Of a stretch of DNA of 39,579 bases, positions 1-39,579 are shown in pieces (positions within the stretch are counted from its first letter, which is position 1; every line of letters begins with the position of its first letter). Origin of the DNA: a virus; the UHGV virus genome UHGV-0251828. One strand, written 5' to 3'. The position numbers and the translations under genes are program-made. The notes beneath the pieces were generated by a model. It saw only the letters and a list, made by a program, of their open reading frames with translations. It was not told the origin of the DNA and did no database searches.

Positions 1-134
1 ACGACGGGCACGACGTATCGGGCGCGGCGGCGGAGCTGACCACCATGTTCTGCTACATCGTCGGTGTGAGCAAATGCCTGCGTGATATCCAGACGCACGC
101 GGAGTACATCAACGACAAGGCAGGGTTCTTCTGA
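1..134 (+). CDS. 3' end of a CDS entering from the window edge; probably the C-terminus of the Bro-N antirepressor-like CDS at 39003..39579
   Basis: Open frame from position 3 to TGA at 132-134; the 577 nt of the terminal ORF leave 1 nt that completes a codon with positions 1-2; no stop in the joined frame. Confidence 0.45.
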   Translation, partial: DGHDVSGAAAELTTMFCYIVGVSKCLRDIQTHAEYINDKAGFF

Positions 135-17822: not shown

Positions 17823-17837
17823 TTACCTTTTAGGTAA
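17823..17837. promoter_or_regulatory. operator-family site TTACCTTTTAGGTAA (perfect 15-bp palindrome) at a plus-strand promoter
   Basis: TTGACA at 17801-17806 upstream; transcription would run toward the tRNA. Confidence 0.55.
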
Positions 17838-18159: not shown

Positions 18160-18236
18160 GTGGCATTAGCTCAGTTGGACAGAGCAACCGCCTTCTAAGC
18201 GGTTGGTCGCAGGTTCGAATCCTGCATGCCACGCCA
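18160..18236 (+). tRNA. tRNA-Arg (anticodon TCT)
   Basis: Hand-folded cloverleaf: 7-bp acceptor GTGGCAT/ATGCCAC, D-stem GCTC/GAGC, anticodon stem ACCGC/GCGGT with loop CTTCTAA, T-stem GCAGG/CCTGC, T-loop TTCGAAT, encoded CCA. Confidence 0.9.
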
Positions 18237-24896: not shown

Positions 24897-24911
24897 TTAC
24901 CCCTTAGGTAA
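24897..24911. promoter_or_regulatory. operator-family site TTACCCCTTAGGTAA at an internal minus-strand promoter
   Basis: Perfect half-sites; minus-strand TTGATT-N17-TTTAAT promoter-like hexamers immediately upstream. Confidence 0.5.
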
Positions 24912-24958
24912 TTAAAAACCACATAAGACACGAAATCAATAGATTTTAGAATATTTTA

Positions 24959-24973
24959 TTACCTCAAAGGTAA
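24959..24973. promoter_or_regulatory. operator-family site TTACCTCAAAGGTAA
   Basis: Perfect 15-bp palindrome 62 bp from the 24897 site (same spacing as the 27978/28040 pair). Confidence 0.5.
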
Positions 24974-27335: not shown

Positions 27336-27920
27336 ATGAAAAGTATCCAGGACGTCCGCAGGCAAAATCTCAACGACTTGATCGACCGTGAATTCAATGG
27401 TGTTCAGACGCGGATGGCAGAAAAACTTGGAACTCAGGCAAATCTGGTAAACCGCTGGGCTCTTGGCAAGAAGGTTATCGGCGACCAGGTTGCGCGAAAA
27501 ATTGAAGCTGCCGCCAATAAACCCCGTAACTGGCTTGATATTGATCGTTCGCTTTCTCAGGAGGGTTTTCAGCCTGTCGGCCCGAGCGATATAGGTCAGC
27601 TGGCGGCTCACAACCTGGAACGCTGGATGAGCGAAAGCCGCGACCTTTCAACACAGGGAAAACTTCACCGCGCATCCGGCGTCGCCCAGGTGACAATCAG
27701 CCGTCTGTTAAACAATGAGGTCAGCGTTTCCATTTCCACCCTGGAGAATGTTGCATCCGCATTCGGGCGTCACGGATATGAATTACTGATTCACCCGCAC
27801 GACCCCGCGACTATCAACTATGACCGCTCGCGCTACGCATTGTTACCTGAAACAGAGAAGGCAAAGATCGAAAGTTACATTGAATTTGTCATCAACCAGA
27901 ACGAAAAAAGCAAACAATAA
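27336..27920 (+). CDS. prophage repressor with two XRE-type HTH-like segments and no recognisable S24 peptidase domain
   Basis: 194-aa track ORF; position divergent from cro; strong terminator downstream. Confidence 0.75.
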   Translation: MKSIQDVRRQNLNDLIDREFNGVQTRMAEKLGTQANLVNRWALGKKVIGDQVARKIEAAANKPRNWLDIDRSLSQEGFQPVGPSDIGQLAAHNLERWMSESRDLSTQGKLHRASGVAQVTISRLLNNEVSVSISTLENVASAFGRHGYELLIHPHDPATINYDRSRYALLPETEKAKIESYIEFVINQNEKSKQ

Positions 27921-27977: not shown

Positions 27978-27992
27978 TTACCTTATGGGTAA
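27978..27992. promoter_or_regulatory. left-operator site TTACCTTATGGGTAA
   Basis: Perfect half-sites, upstream of TTGACA at 28012-28017. Confidence 0.6.
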
Positions 27993-28039
27993 TTTTTTTA
28001 ACTCATATCTATTGACATCAAACCAGATACGCATAATTA

Positions 28040-28054
28040 TTACCTCAACGGTAA
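28040..28054. promoter_or_regulatory. left-operator site TTACCTCAACGGTAA overlapping the early-left promoter
   Basis: Perfect half-sites; TTGACA (28012-28017) with 17-bp spacer to an AATTAT -10-like element. Confidence 0.6.
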
Positions 28055-35383: not shown

Positions 35384-38233
35384 TTACTTATTTTTTTCCA
35401 TTGGTTCAGCCTTATTGAGTTGTTCCTTAAGCTTATTCCATGCTGAATCCTCAGGCATCTGTACTCGCACAGAAACGAACTGATTAGCAGGAATGTCGAT
35501 CGGGTCACCGTTCGAAACACCAGGGATGTCGTTACGTGCAAAAACTGGCGAGTTATCATGAGTGCGGTGAAACGTTTTCACCAACACAGAGCCATCTTGG
35601 TTAACAACATAATCCAGCCAGATGAGCGGCTGCTTGTTTCGGTCCTGCGGTATTTCAAATCCACCATCAATCCCCCCCCATGAAGCATCTGCATTCAGAC
35701 CTACGCAACCCTCAATCAGATATTCCCCCAATGCCAGCCGTGTGACGGTTACCCCATCTGATTCGCGATTTGTTTCACTACTACCGTCTGAGAAAATCTT
35801 CACAACCGGAGAGGCTTTTTTGATGAAACCACTTGAATCGACGGTCGTGTTCAGCGACGACCATGCCTCAGCCCAGCCTGTGTTACCTGCGCGAATAGCA
35901 TCGTCTGCGTAGCGGAAGAACAGTTTTGATGTTGTGGACATGAATATCTGCAACACACGGTTTTTTGCATATCCTGACTCCCATAATGCTCCGTTACCTG
36001 TTCCTTCTGGCTGCCAGTTTGTCACCCCACCTGCAGCTCCTACACTTACACCAGTAGACCAGTCTCCAGCAAATTCTGGAAGATTTAGTGAGTTAGGTGA
36101 GCGAATTGATACATCAACCAGACCAGGGGATCCGAGAATCGACATGCTGCGGGAGGACACCTTAGTAAAAGAGTTGTACCCGCCGTTTTTGGAAATCCTT
36201 CCTGTATAATTATTAGCCCTGTTAGTTCCATTAACTGTAATTTCCCAGGTATCGCCGTTGATGAAGTCGATCTGCAATAGGCAGAATGCTGGCAGCGTCA
36301 TCTGTCCTGGCGCAGATGGCCCACCTTCAAACAGTGGCATATCCTGTTCAAGATATGTCACATATCTACCTGCATCTGTATTCCGCAAATAGTCACAAAT
36401 AGCCTGTGCCGATGTAAATAGCGCAATACCATCAGCCGGGTTTACAGGGTGACGGCCAGCGTTAATCACCCTTCCGCGAGGGTTAAATAACTGTGATGAG
36501 GCATTGGATAGCGGAGTCATGTCTACTGTTCCAGGTTCATTAGATGGACAGTTAGCGCGAATGATGTTTAAAGTCCTATAATTTGATCCGCCCCCATTGT
36601 CATAGCGAATAGACTGTAGAAGATACAATTCCTCAGAGCCAGAAATATCACAAGACTGCACCCCCTCATTTTCAGTGGAGTAAACACTCTTCCCTGAATA
36701 ACTATCCCAGTATGTTTTGAAATCTGCAGGTGACAGCAGGTACTGACCTAATTCTGAACCATTAAGGCTGTACTCAATATAACCCTGCAACCCTGCGAAA
36801 GTATTTCCAGATCCCGCCGTGGTAGATGCACCAATACCAGCAAATATCCGTTGAGAACCAAGAGCGACACCCTGCCGTTTTGGTTTACCGGCTCCGCGAC
36901 CTCCAACATTTGCATCAACCGTAATAGTCCCCATTGGACTGTAAGATCCTTCTATAAGGCTGTTAATATCCAGTGTGTTAAAGATATTGGATACACCTGT
37001 CTCAACATCAAAAATTTTCGGCCAACCCATATCCGCATTTTCGTATATCAGGGTATTACCAAAGCCACTAAACTGATATCGCACTCCAAGGCGTGTTGAT
37101 TCAGTGAAGTTTGTAATCTGCGTTTTATCAACCAGCGTACGCGGATCTTCGATAGGGTAAATTCTGATAGTGCGAGATGGGCTGTACGGCAGCAGGATGT
37201 AACGCTGTCCTGCCACTCGGTAAACGTGGATGCCTTCTGGTGCACCAACGTTATTCGGAAAATGAAGACGTGTTACCAATGCTCCTGTTACCCAGTCATG
37301 CACCGTAACCCATACCGATGCGGGGTCTAGCGTCTGCCAGCCGATGTATACCATTCCATCATTGCTGTCTATGTAAATCCCCTGAAATCCCATGGTCGTG
37401 TAACCATACTGATCTTTAAGATCTGCGGTAATCTCATCGTCTATGATGCTGAATTCTAATTTCCAGTTCAGCGGCCTACGCGTACCACTGACATGCCTGG
37501 AAATATGAGACAGGTAGCTTTTTTTCCCTCCGGCCAAAATGTAACGCGAGGTTATTTCTGTCACTATGCCGACTGCAGCAGGAGTAACACGATAAACAGC
37601 CCCATTAATCCTGACAAAGTTTGAAATGGTTTTTATCTCATACCCGACAGACATGTCCAAGCGAGAGCTGTCATATTTGCCATTAGCGAGATCTGTAACA
37701 TACATTGCGTTGTCGATGTTATCAGGCCTAACTACCCCACTATATAAGTCTTGCACATATTTTTTTGTTACAGCATCCTGAGAGTTCTTCGGATCGGCCA
37801 AATTGGAAATTCTGTTTTGCTTTGCATCGTAATATTTTGCAAGCAAAGATGGTTTCATCAATGCACGTCTGAACCACCCAAAACATCGCTGGATCAGCAT
37901 CGTCAGGTAGTCAAATGCATCTTCATGAACTTCGGGGAAAAATTTTCCCTGATTGCGAAGATCAGTCTCCTGCACCACATCAAGCACACGCTCTATCGTG
38001 ATTCGCCAGCCAGCAGCAAGCGGCGACGGAAGAACCACTGCACCGCCACTATAAGTTCCCGCCCCTGTTACTGTATAACCAGCATCCAGCACTAGTTCTG
38101 TTACGTTACCGTTAAGGTCAGACACCTGAACAACCAGGTCGGATTTTTTGAAAATACGGAAGGTATACGGAAATGATGTCGTAACGCCGTTACCTGTGTA
38201 TTCGTTGTGGTCAACTTCGGTTGAGACCGTCAT
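35384..38233 (-). CDS. tailspike protein
   Basis: 949-aa track ORF; GGAG SD; Ser/Gly/Asn-rich central region. Confidence 0.85.
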   Translation of the reverse strand: MTVSTEVDHNEYTGNGVTTSFPYTFRIFKKSDLVVQVSDLNGNVTELVLDAGYTVTGAGTYSGGAVVLPSPLAAGWRITIERVLDVVQETDLRNQGKFFPEVHEDAFDYLTMLIQRCFGWFRRALMKPSLLAKYYDAKQNRISNLADPKNSQDAVTKKYVQDLYSGVVRPDNIDNAMYVTDLANGKYDSSRLDMSVGYEIKTISNFVRINGAVYRVTPAAVGIVTEITSRYILAGGKKSYLSHISRHVSGTRRPLNWKLEFSIIDDEITADLKDQYGYTTMGFQGIYIDSNDGMVYIGWQTLDPASVWVTVHDWVTGALVTRLHFPNNVGAPEGIHVYRVAGQRYILLPYSPSRTIRIYPIEDPRTLVDKTQITNFTESTRLGVRYQFSGFGNTLIYENADMGWPKIFDVETGVSNIFNTLDINSLIEGSYSPMGTITVDANVGGRGAGKPKRQGVALGSQRIFAGIGASTTAGSGNTFAGLQGYIEYSLNGSELGQYLLSPADFKTYWDSYSGKSVYSTENEGVQSCDISGSEELYLLQSIRYDNGGGSNYRTLNIIRANCPSNEPGTVDMTPLSNASSQLFNPRGRVINAGRHPVNPADGIALFTSAQAICDYLRNTDAGRYVTYLEQDMPLFEGGPSAPGQMTLPAFCLLQIDFINGDTWEITVNGTNRANNYTGRISKNGGYNSFTKVSSRSMSILGSPGLVDVSIRSPNSLNLPEFAGDWSTGVSVGAAGGVTNWQPEGTGNGALWESGYAKNRVLQIFMSTTSKLFFRYADDAIRAGNTGWAEAWSSLNTTVDSSGFIKKASPVVKIFSDGSSETNRESDGVTVTRLALGEYLIEGCVGLNADASWGGIDGGFEIPQDRNKQPLIWLDYVVNQDGSVLVKTFHRTHDNSPVFARNDIPGVSNGDPIDIPANQFVSVRVQMPEDSAWNKLKEQLNKAEPMEKNK

Positions 38234-38318
38234 GTTAAATCTCCAGATAGTCGCAGCACCCGTTGCGCCGCATATCTGGTTATTCTATTACCTGAAAAAC
38301 CACATATGGATAGAAAGA

Positions 38319-38334
38319 CTGTGAATATGAACAG
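38319..38334. promoter_or_regulatory. LexA (SOS) box-like CTGTGAATATGAACAG
   Basis: Fits CTGT-N8-ACAG with AT-rich centre. Confidence 0.55.
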
Positions 38335-38337
38335 ATA

Positions 38338-38352
38338 TTACCTTTCGGGTAA
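38338..38352. promoter_or_regulatory. operator-family site TTACCTTTCGGGTAA between two LexA boxes
   Basis: Perfect half-sites. Confidence 0.55.
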
Positions 38353-38391
38353 TTTGCAAAACGTGCTGGATAGCAAACAAATTATTTGATA

Positions 38392-38407
38392 CTGTATAAA
38401 TATACAG
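38392..38407. promoter_or_regulatory. LexA (SOS) box CTGTATAAATATACAG
   Basis: Near-consensus CTGT-N8-ACAG palindrome 23 bp upstream of the 38415 ATG; TTGATA just 5'. Confidence 0.7.
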
Positions 38408-38429
38408 TTATTGCATGGAGAAGATTAAG

Positions 38430-38687
38430 ATGCAGCAGTATCACTATCCACTGGAAGACGGATTTACCGAAAGGATTCACACGCCGGGAGGCGTCAGGTC
38501 ACTGGTGGAAGGATCGCACTTGATGAAATTACTCCGGGATCTCGATAAGGATGGATTTAATGTCGATGGCCCACTTGCCGAACTGACTGCACTGATTAAC
38601 TACGTCACCAGCTCACAGATGTCTATGCGGGATCTGCAAACACATCTCGACTATTGTGCCGAACAATTACGAAAACAAACCAGATAA
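38430..38687 (+). CDS. SOS-regulated small protein (~85 aa), candidate small antirepressor
   Basis: ATG at 38430 with GGAG SD (track ORF starts at 38415). Confidence 0.5.
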   Translation: MQQYHYPLEDGFTERIHTPGGVRSLVEGSHLMKLLRDLDKDGFNVDGPLAELTALINYVTSSQMSMRDLQTHLDYCAEQLRKQTR

Positions 38688-38718
38688 GGTTTGCAATTAC
38701 CAAGTGGAGTGCTTATAT

Positions 38719-38733
38719 TTACCTTTGCGGTAA
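38719..38733. promoter_or_regulatory. operator-family site TTACCTTTGCGGTAA
   Basis: Perfect half-sites between the small SOS gene and the Bro-N gene. Confidence 0.55.
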
Positions 38734-38823
38734 ATTTACATAGCACTCCTCTTGTGCCATAGTAATCGGGCACTGGCAAAATCCAGTGCCGGGATTGGCG
38801 TCCCGAGTTACTAAGTGGCGCAT

Positions 38824-38847
38824 ACCACGCCAGACGTGGTTTTTTTA
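38824..38847 (+). terminator. intrinsic terminator-like hairpin in the leader of the Bro-N gene
   Basis: CCACG-CCAGA-CGTGG hairpin followed by TTTTTTT. Confidence 0.5.
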
Positions 38848-39002
38848 TGCGTTAAGCACAGCTATATCCGAATTATGGTGGGCTGGGCAGGGGTCCGAAA
38901 GGACGCCGGTACCACTTAGGCCGGTACGCCAACCTTGTCCAGTTCACCACCAGTAATTGGCGTTGCGGTGGTGATTAAAATCACTAAGTGGAGATAACCA
39001 CC

Positions 39003-39579
39003 ATGGCTAATGCTCAAACTGCCATCTTCAAATTTGAATCTGTTAACCCTATCCGTTCCATCATTATCGATGGCCAACCATGGTTTGTAGCCCAAGACGT
39101 TTGTAGTGCGCTGCGTATCCAAAACGTCACCCAAGCACTTGAAAAACTGGATGATGATGAAAGGTCTATGTTCAACATAGGGCATGAACATCGTGCAATT
39201 TTTGACAGCCGAGTAAAAGAGATCAACATCATCTCCGAGTCAGGCCTCTACACACTGATCCTCCGCTGCCGCGACGCAGTGACACCAGGCACTATCCCAT
39301 ACCGCTTTCGTAAATGGGTTACAGGTGAGGTTCTTCCTCAGATCCGCCGCACCGGAAGTTACATTAAAAACTCGCTCCCGCAGGAAGAGCGCATAAAGAT
39401 GGTTGCCGACCAGGTAGCCAACGCCACAGCATCAGCAGTGATGCAGGCGATGAAGATAGAGAACAAAACCTACAGTGCCCCACTGAAGCCCGGCTACCGC
39501 AGCCTGATTCATTCGCCGTCTGGTGTTCTCGGCCTGACGGAGAACTCACTGCTGATGAATCTGCTGAACCAGTTACAGG
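39003..39579 (+). CDS. Bro-N/KilA-type antirepressor-like protein, 3'-truncated by the window edge
   Basis: 192 codons without stop; GGAG SD; motif NPIRSIIIDGQPWFVAQDVCSAL. Confidence 0.7.
   Translation, partial: MANAQTAIFKFESVNPIRSIIIDGQPWFVAQDVCSALRIQNVTQALEKLDDDERSMFNIGHEHRAIFDSRVKEINIISESGLYTLILRCRDAVTPGTIPYRFRKWVTGEVLPQIRRTGSYIKNSLPQEERIKMVADQVANATASAVMQAMKIENKTYSAPLKPGYRSLIHSPSGVLGLTENSLLMNLLNQLQ

Follow-up and report, generated by a model that had tools for sequence, protein, structure and literature searches.

The end of the window that we analysed here, the 39,579-nucleotide UHGV virus genome UHGV-0251828, very probably carries a two-armed anti-repression module of a phiV10/epsilon15-like temperate podovirus, in which both arms would inactivate one and the same non-cleavable repressor, Rep. 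The first arm consists of a small gene, ant, whose predicted promoter lies under a box for the SOS repressor LexA; the second consists of a gene coding for a Bro-N protein with a paralogous Ant domain (called here Bro-N::Ant), preceded by an isrK-C4 antisense RNA cassette. A first-pass annotation of positions 38319-39579, made from the letters of the sequence, had proposed a single SOS-controlled antirepressor module with tandem LexA boxes on both sides of a repressor operator. The SOS-controlled antirepressor is borne out by the present analysis, and the remainder of that proposal has to be modified in several respects.

The 1.38-kb region under study matches Escherichia phage HEMP4 at 98% and phiV10, TL-2011b, ZX5 and related phages at about 93%; remoter matches are the Salmonella phages epsilon15, SPC32H and SPN1S, as well as Enterobacter and Klebsiella relatives. 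When the end of the window is joined to its start, the sequence is collinear with that of HEMP4, one substitution aside. Because the ends join as in HEMP4, we consider the window to be the complete, circularly permuted genome of an epsilon15/phiV10-like (Uetakevirus) temperate podovirus, cut within the Bro-N gene. To follow conservation, the intergenic region between tailspike gene and ant was aligned from 12 phages (9 E. coli, Salmonella and Enterobacter genomes and 3 Klebsiella phages), IMG/VR was scanned with the conserved flanks, which gave 109 related contigs, and the cassette downstream of ant was surveyed in the 91 related E. coli-type contigs having enough sequence. Homologies, motifs, conservation and RNA covariation were read directly from these sequences.

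A LexA box covers the predicted promoter of an SPC32H-type antirepressor gene

The open reading frame (ORF) of about 85 codons indicated in the first-pass annotation does encode 85 amino acids, and its ATG follows a Shine-Dalgarno (SD) sequence (Table 1). We observed that its product is about 85% identical to PDB 5D50_E, the 'Anti-repressor protein' Ant of SPC32H, over residues 2-84 (83 of 85 residues, E 1.4e-46), and that it also matches phrog_450. With Pfam, we obtained only a sub-threshold DUF724 hit, regarded as noise given the PDB match. In the SPC32H record, the syntenic gene beside the tailspike gene is labelled ant, and the order tailspike (-)/ant (+) is that of the window. About 10 kb from ant lies the gene of a 194-amino-acid prophage repressor homologous to SPC32H Rep. 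In a Pfam search, this protein showed helix-turn-helix domains only and no S24 autocleavage peptidase domain; it is predicted to be a non-cleavable repressor targeted by Ant.

The Rep/Ant/LexA system of SPC32H is reportedly the work of Kim & Ryu (2013, J Virol) and Kim et al. (2016, PNAS), with PDB 5D4Z/5D50 as the corresponding structures. According to PMC7380047, the SOS response and the self-cleavage of LexA lead in SPC32H to the production of Ant, by which the repressor is inhibited. In two further citing papers, Ant is described as a tetramer that takes up two Rep dimers and thereby disrupts the DNA-binding tetramer of Rep (PMC9638917), and as contacting the tetramerisation domain of Rep, which resembles those of looping regulators (PMC9986798). 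From the high identity to this crystallised partner, we infer that Ant of the window binds Rep and releases it from DNA.

The 20-mer TACTGTATAAATATACAGTT upstream of ant has two mismatches to the 20-nucleotide (nt) E. coli LexA consensus and is the only site of the genome within three mismatches of it, against 0 expected. Sites were also scored with an approximate heterology index (HI), whose matrix was derived from 20 LexA sites of E. coli known from the literature; with an HI of about 1.5, this box is the best among the 39,579 positions. It is kept in 9 of the 12 aligned genomes, namely those of the E. coli, Salmonella and Enterobacter group with SPC32H and epsilon15 among them, and is degenerate in the 3 Klebsiella phages. 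Among the IMG/VR contigs, 107 of the 109 have it intact (HI 1.5-3.0). The description of this box as near-consensus was thus correct.

Promoters were predicted by a rough sigma-70 scoring with hexamer frequencies taken from general knowledge of such promoters, a heuristic in which start sites are predicted and not mapped. The predicted ant promoter has the best + strand score in the 9 non-Klebsiella genomes, and its hexamers stand in the same alignment column with a 17-bp spacing in 12/12 phages (TGnTACTGT at the -10); the sequence of the spacer varies. Both its -10 and its predicted start fall within the LexA box, so that bound LexA would occlude the promoter in the classic manner. Another pair, TTGCAA-17/18-CAAATT, for which an operator would adjoin the -35, scores lower and its position is not kept outside close relatives; we retain it as a minor possibility. 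With an Ant homologue, a rep gene at a distance and a conserved near-consensus box at the predicted promoter, an SOS-controlled antirepressor module away from the immunity region, as first proposed, appears to be present.

The deposited genomes of SPC32H and SPC32N show two base differences in the 3.35-kb locus. One of them, a C>A substitution at locus position 1570, turns the right arm of the box at ant from ACAG into AAAG; it represents a natural SOS-box mutant and an indirect indication that LexA acts on ant. This difference in the box reportedly lies behind the differing lysogeny behaviour of the two phages.

The Bro-N protein carries a second Ant-like domain

The Bro-N gene had been said to wrap around the window. 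Indeed, its 236-codon ORF runs across the junction of the window as in HEMP4. The Bro-N domain (PF02498) occupies residues 17-112 (72.1 bits, cut-off 25.6), and an Ant-like domain begins near residue 153, with 43% identity to Ant over residues 155-228 (BLASTP E 3e-16). The C-terminus matches both 5D50_E (E 2.2e-13) and phrog_450 (E 6e-36). Divergent Ant orthologues and the C-termini of the fusions can be aligned without a gap across the shared domain, with 16 invariant columns. The window holds exactly two copies, no third Ant-like copy being found in it. The first-pass annotation had left open which ORF is the true antirepressor; because the small ORF is an Ant orthologue and the C-terminus of the Bro-N protein is an Ant paralogue, we conclude from homology that both proteins are antirepressors.

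A second Ant-like domain is encoded downstream of ant in 77 of the 91 contigs surveyed, and in 76 of these 77 it is under P1-style antisense RNA control. The N-terminal part is not Bro-N-like in 13 of the 77, with linker and Ant-like domain retained. In 13 of the 91 contigs ant is alone, as in SPC32H and epsilon15. Throughout the phage collection, the Ant domain was found in 35 records only, all of them epsilon15/phiV10-like, a restricted range that fits with this domain being a repressor-specific 'warhead'.

In phiV10 (our record L001, 2300-2979), Bro-N::Ant is split into p23 (194 amino acids) and p22 (29 amino acids), the Ant-like domain matching in two frames; this is either a frameshifted second antirepressor or a sequencing error. 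Moreover, the Ant orthologues of two Klebsiella phages (L007 and L011) carry DGHDVSGAAAEL, a segment which, up to the last residue, matches the Ant-like domains of the fusions (it is identical to the copy in the window) and not the remaining orthologues of Ant. We take this as a hint that the two paralogues have exchanged sequence.

An isrK-C4 RNA cassette precedes the Bro-N::Ant gene

The second operator, a terminator-like hairpin and the Bro-N gene had been grouped with ant into one SOS module. The hairpin is present (38824-40, followed by a T-run), but the two curated RNA genes of the region, isrK and C4, had not been recognised. Both score above their Rfam gathering thresholds (Table 1), and together with the covariation described below they indicate a separate RNA-controlled cassette instead.

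We observed that the b' loop of C4 is complementary to both b1 and b2 (exact over 8 nt), and a' to both a1 and a2 (exact over 7 nt); the predicted b2 duplex has an energy of -12.6 kcal/mol. Across phages the b' loop has at least 7 sequences, and b1 and b2 change to match. The a', a1 and a2 elements covary too, with two a specificities. The mean duplex energy is -12 kcal/mol for self pairs versus -5 for non-self pairs, and self pairing is the best in 8/9 phages for b1 and in 9/9 for b2. In addition, the 241-nt stretch 38770-39010 folds much more stably than its shuffled versions (z = -5.3). The tRNA-like acceptor stem of C4 ends in ...CACCACCA, a hint that C4 may be processed from its precursor by RNase P.

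The isrK-C4 tandem is also found ahead of antirepressor genes in 11 other phages; its carriers are phiV10, ZX5, Tyrion, two Klebsiella phages, Hafnia yong2, Yersinia vB_YpM_41, Salmonella 118970_sal3 and Stx phages. In the last of these, Rfam RF03163 ('c4-a1b1') overlaps isrK. We conclude that, as predicted from pairing and layout, isrK and C4 form a P1-type antisense switch over the ribosome-binding site (RBS) of the Bro-N gene, a cassette of the P1 immI/IsrK type.

No ORF, icd-like or other, exists between C4 and the start of Bro-N::Ant, and b2 covers the SD sequence of the antirepressor itself. The ORF that begins at ATG 38875 has 14 codons (38875-38919), and its TAG falls within the b' loop, some 85 nt short of the ATG of the antirepressor gene. 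Because this upstream ORF is so short and its stop codon falls in the b' loop, direct occlusion by C4 of the antirepressor's own SD is more likely than a translational coupling of the orf45 type known from Gifsy-1, a model that we set aside since the ORF is truncated.

The predicted promoter of the isrK/C4 operon (TTTACA-17-CATAGT) is kept in 7/7 relatives that carry the cassette, and transcription from it is predicted to begin just where the isrK match of Rfam has its 5' end; the second Rep operator is found at the same offset in the same 7/7. Another candidate for this promoter, TTGCAA-17-TATATT (38691-38719), is conserved in the E. coli relatives only and was rejected.

We also noticed that the operator of the isrK promoter is contained in a longer palindrome at 38706-38749 (GGAGTGCT ... 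AGCACTCC), whose arms are perfect over 18 bp in phiV10; in a read-through ant RNA it would form a long hairpin. Coding sequences annotated as 'Ash family protein' overlie the C4 gene in ZX5 (L005 2150-2263) and in Hafnia yong2 (L012 988-1671), and they are probably RNA genes miscalled as proteins; in the window this frame has no more than the 14 codons mentioned above. Finally, five b' loop sequences exist among otherwise very similar E. coli phiV10-like IMG/VR contigs, a diversity which suggests RNA-level heteroimmunity types within one phage group, in the style of P1/P7.

Rep operators and the possible control of ant, tailspike and isrK

We counted 10 copies of the Rep operator motif TTACC-N5-GGTAA in the window, where 0.01 would be expected, and the two operator sites of the first-pass annotation, 38338-52 and 38719-33, are both present. 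The operator at 38337-53 is kept in 12/12 relatives and in 109/109 contigs, and the epsilon15 record has a 'repressor' protein_bind feature at the homologous site. On the side opposite to ant, a leftward tailspike promoter, TYCATA-17-TAGAAT, is predicted at the same position in 12/12 relatives, and a conserved TTACC half-operator adjoins its -10. The 38337-53 operator is upstream of both -35 elements and overlaps neither promoter; its centre is at about -57 relative to the ant start and about -70 relative to the tailspike start, and it spans -49 to -65 of the conserved ant promoter. Because it sits between the two promoters and upstream of both -35 elements, control of ant by Rep is plausible without being established. 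This operator may act on ant, on the tailspike gene or on the two together, or it may take part in looping.

It is possible, though somewhat unlikely in our opinion, that this operator, together with the distal LexA-like box where there is one as here, mainly controls the tailspike promoter and silences a structural gene in the lysogen, perhaps through bridging by the Rep tetramer to the TTACC half-site. The oppositely oriented ant module separates the tailspike gene from the other structural genes, so that the tailspike gene needs a promoter of its own, and both this promoter and the half-site adjoining its -10 are conserved as described above. Besides, Rep is tetrameric, and its tetramerisation domain is similar to those of looping regulators, as stated in PMC9986798. 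However, an operator centred some 70 bp upstream of the predicted tailspike start would not occlude it, no full second operator is found nearby in SPC32H or epsilon15, and late genes may rely on an activator instead.

We give still less credit to the view that Rep activates the isrK promoter, and possibly that of ant, as lambda CI does at PRM, so that the lysogen makes IsrK/C4 RNA and keeps ant poised but blocked by LexA. Both operators adjoin a -35-like hexamer (GGTAAT|TTGCAA and GGTAAA|TTTACA), the isrK operator being centred at about -44, whereas the operators at lytic-type promoters (17823 and 28040) overlap the -10; moreover, an antisense RNA is useful only if it is made in the lysogen. 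These arguments are of geometry, however: repressors bound at -35 to -50 are common as well, Rep is known only as a repressor, and in the promoter scan the TTGCAA beside the ant operator is not the conserved ant -35.

The tandem LexA boxes of the first-pass annotation bear on a third possibility. Both CTGT-N8-ACAG strings exist where it had placed them, at 38319-38334 and 38392-38407, among 4 matches in the window versus 0.46 expected; the two others (13810 and 18352), with HI of about 20 and 14, are unconvincing as LexA sites. What did not hold is the equivalence of the two boxes. The distal one is absent from HEMP4, which reads CCCATAAATACGAAAAG at this place and is otherwise 98% identical, as well as from phiV10, ZX5, SPC32H and epsilon15, and it is found in the window alone in the 12-phage alignment, where the relatives score HI 15-22 at its position. 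Among the IMG/VR contigs, the full distal CTGT-N8-ACAG is present in 6/109, and a single T>C change separates the form of the window from a common haplotype, seen nine times. Because the distal box is rare, weak and one substitution from this common form, the tandem is not a conserved design; the box is probably the fortuitous product of a point mutation in a polymorphic spacer, and, given its lack of conservation, we rejected it as a genuine second SOS box. In known cooperative pairs, such as those at the lexA, recN and colicin promoters, the LexA boxes adjoin or overlap each other; here they are 73 bp apart, centre to centre, and the distal one is weak and rare.

We consequently consider it unlikely that the two boxes, one on each side of the Rep operator, act jointly at the ant promoter to form a compact switch with two inputs (LexA AND Rep). 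Both boxes do match CTGT-N8-ACAG, the distal one is the second-best LexA-like site of the genome, they are about 7 helical turns apart, and the operator between them is strongly conserved. Nevertheless, the distal box (HI about 10) is missing from 103 of the 109 contigs and from HEMP4, its distance from the proximal box is unlike that of cooperative pairs, and the operator lies at -49 to -65 of the conserved ant promoter.

Lastly, it is very improbable that the physiological role of antirepressor belongs to the Bro-N protein, the product of the small ORF being accessory or unrelated, as the annotation of most relatives implies ('anti-repressor' for the Bro-N gene and 'hypothetical' for the small ORF), since the small ORF is the one that resembles so closely the protein crystallised with Rep, SPC32H, epsilon15, PAT1, BUCT554 and the 13 E. 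coli-type contigs mentioned above have ant without a Bro-N gene, and Bro-N::Ant is split in phiV10.

Other Rep operators were observed elsewhere in the window. Those at 24897-24973 and 27978-28054 form two pairs, each spaced by exactly 62 bp, and upstream of rep there is a cluster of one full and two degenerate copies (at about 27215, about 27247 and 27266). This paired and clustered layout suggests that Rep tetramers bridge paired sites. The operator at 28040 overlaps the -10 of a TTGACA promoter, and the one at 17823-17837 covers part of the -10 region of a promoter with consensus TTGACA, which precedes a phage tRNA-Arg(UCU) gene (18160-18236) by about 330 bp. Another one, at 207-221, is located just past the stop codon of Bro-N::Ant and ahead of two ORFs (282-461 and 436-981). 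The larger of these is weakly YafO-toxin-like (23.4 bits, under the Pfam cut-off of 25), and this may represent a toxin-antitoxin-like accessory gene ('moron') under the control of Rep.

Table 1. Features of the anti-repression region and of the rep gene in UHGV-0251828 (positions in the window).
Feature	Position	Strand	Remarks
ant, 85-amino-acid antirepressor, orthologue of SPC32H Ant	38430-38687	+	PDB 5D50_E, phrog_450; SD GGAG 38417-20
Proximal LexA (SOS) box TACTGTATAAATATACAGTT	38390-38409	+	overlaps -10 and predicted start of ant promoter
Predicted ant promoter: -35 TGGATA (38367-72), 17-nt spacer, extended -10 TGaTACTGT (38387-95)	38367-38395	+	start predicted near 38402
Rep operator ATTACCTTTCGGGTAAT	38337-38353		between divergent ant and tailspike promoters
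Distal LexA-like box GACTGTGAATATGAACAGAT	38317-38336		HI about 10.1, weak, rank 2 in genome
Predicted leftward tailspike promoter: -35 TCCATA (38310 to 38305), 17-nt spacer, -10 TAGAAT (38287 to 38282)	38282-38310	-	conserved
Tailspike ORF	35384-38233	-	ORF list
rep, 194-amino-acid prophage repressor, homologue of SPC32H Rep	27336-27920	+	PDB 5D50_A, E 3.5e-42
Second Rep operator TTTACCTTTGCGGTAAA	38718-38734		adjoins -35 of isrK promoter
Predicted isrK/C4 operon promoter TTTACA-17-(TGc)CATAGT	38735-38763	+	start predicted near 38770
isrK-like leader small RNA, intrinsic terminator 38824-46	38770-38846	+	Rfam RF01394, 67.2 bits (gathering score 50)
C4 target copies a1 (isrK hairpin loop) and b1 (isrK linker)	a1 38795-801; b1 38811-18	+	within isrK
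C4-type antisense RNA	38871-38954	+	Rfam RF01695, 66 bits (gathering score 45), full-length match
C4 loops b' CCACTTAG and a' ACGCCAA	b' 38912-19; a' 38926-32	+	within C4
C4 targets a2 (38957-63) and b2 (38984-91)	38957-38993	+	b2 overlaps SD GGAG (38990-93) of Bro-N::Ant
Bro-N::Ant gene, 5' part (codons 1-192 and 1 base)	39003-39579	+	Pfam Bro-N, E 6e-20
Bro-N::Ant gene, 3' part (second half of Ant-like domain)	1-134	+	stop TGA 132-134; 236-amino-acid product

Proposed mechanism and its weak points

In the two-armed module that we propose, host LexA bound to the proximal box would cover the -10 and the start of the ant promoter and keep ant off. Upon DNA damage, RecA-stimulated self-cleavage of LexA would allow ant to be transcribed; Ant would then bind Rep and dismantle its DNA-binding tetramer, the operators would be freed throughout the genome and the prophage would be induced. 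In the other arm, the promoter beside the second Rep operator would drive an isrK-like leader ended mostly at its own terminator, and read-through would yield the C4 antisense RNA and the Bro-N::Ant mRNA. Pairing of the a' and b' loops of C4 with a2 and b2, the latter covering the SD of the fusion, would leave the second antirepressor untranslated, and the leader would bear the decoy copies a1 and b1.

The two arms could even be linked, a speculation to which we attach little probability. In a terminator scan, no terminator was predicted between ant and the isrK terminator; because there is none between ant and the leader, the SOS-induced ant transcript would end at the isrK terminator with the a1/b1 decoys in its 3' untranslated region, titrate C4 and unlock Bro-N::Ant, while the loss of Rep would concurrently change the output of the isrK promoter. 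If this is true, the module would constitute an SOS-to-antisense-RNA feed-forward loop that commits the switch through two proteins sharing a Rep-binding domain.

Several points weigh against the two-armed module as proposed. The evidence for the present phage comes wholly from its sequence: the binding of LexA, the binding of Rep by the two proteins, the positions of promoters and starts, and the sign of the effect of Rep at its two operators are all predictions. The promoter calls derive from approximate scoring and the LexA matrix from 20 literature sites, and what is said here of the SPC32H ant promoter comes from secondary citations. The operator near ant does not overlap the predicted core promoter, which makes the role of Rep there uncertain, and at the isrK promoter an operator adjoining the -35 at about -44 has a geometry that fits repression or activation. 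Finally, a coupled upstream ORF of the Gifsy-1 orf45 type was not encountered in the window, where its counterpart has only 14 codons, and the details of the RNA arm must differ from those of Gifsy-1.

If the proposal is right, the E. coli phiV10-like phages, among which are phages employed for O157 typing or as reporters and one that stems from an O103:H25 outbreak strain, would use an induction switch of the SPC32H LexA/Ant/Rep type, and most of their contigs (77/91) would back it up with a second antirepressor having the same Rep-binding domain. This may be of use in predicting or engineering the induction of phiV10-like prophages. It also means that some database labels are misleading, namely 'hypothetical protein' for ant and 'Ash family protein' over the C4 RNA.

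Comparison with known systems

The SOS arm is closest to SPC32H, and epsilon15 also has a system of this type, as gp19. With SPC32H the window shares an Ant orthologue of about 85% identity, a Rep orthologue, the position divergent from the tailspike gene, a LexA box over the ant promoter and an upstream Rep operator. Unlike SPC32H, it has an isrK-C4-Bro-N::Ant cassette after ant. Instead of the terminator by which ant is closed in the Salmonella phages, there is read-through into this cassette, and a weak LexA-like site is present in addition.

Direct LexA control of an antirepressor gene outside the immunity region, with a non-cleavable repressor, has been described for Tum of phage 186 and for GfoA/GftA of the Gifsy phages (PMC3121763). 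The likeness of the window to these and to AntC of N15 lies in the regulatory logic; in the phage collection, the Ant domain was found only in epsilon15/phiV10-like phages.

As regards the RNA arm, the antisense logic of c4 is known from P1/P7 (PMC8201110), and N15 combines in one phage a LexA-controlled antC and a small-RNA-controlled anti-immunity operon, immA (PMC4488713). Like immI of P1/P7 (c4-icd-ant) and immA of N15 (small processed RNA-antA-icd-antB), the cassette of the window has a C4-family RNA with a1/b1 upstream and a2/b2 downstream, b2 over an RBS, an antirepressor gene downstream and a promoter associated with an operator of the prophage repressor; as in N15, an SOS-controlled and an RNA-controlled antirepressor occur together. 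In contrast to P1 and N15, no icd-like coupling ORF is present and b2 lies on the antirepressor's own SD; moreover, the genes of the two antirepressors stand side by side, and their products have a homologous repressor-binding domain in common. The likeness considered here is one of RNA element and layout.

In the IsrK-orf45-anrP locus of Gifsy-1, the mechanism requires orf45, an upstream ORF with a translational coupling to the antirepressor gene (Hershko-Shalev et al. 2016, PMC4825925). The window resembles this locus in that an isrK-family small RNA with its own terminator is followed by a complementary processed RNA (STnc1160 in Gifsy-1, comparable to the C4-like element) and then by an antirepressor gene. 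It differs by an orf45 counterpart reduced to 14 codons, with its stop in the b' loop, and by a promoter that has a Rep operator.

In the literature searched, we found no description of two adjacent antirepressor genes, nor of a shared repressor-binding domain with an exchangeable fusion N-terminus. On the grounds of homology and layout, the SOS arm is a direct orthologue of the SPC32H switch and the RNA arm a member of the C4/IsrK cassette family; their adjacency and the shared Ant domain constitute a modest extension of these known systems and not a new type of mechanism.

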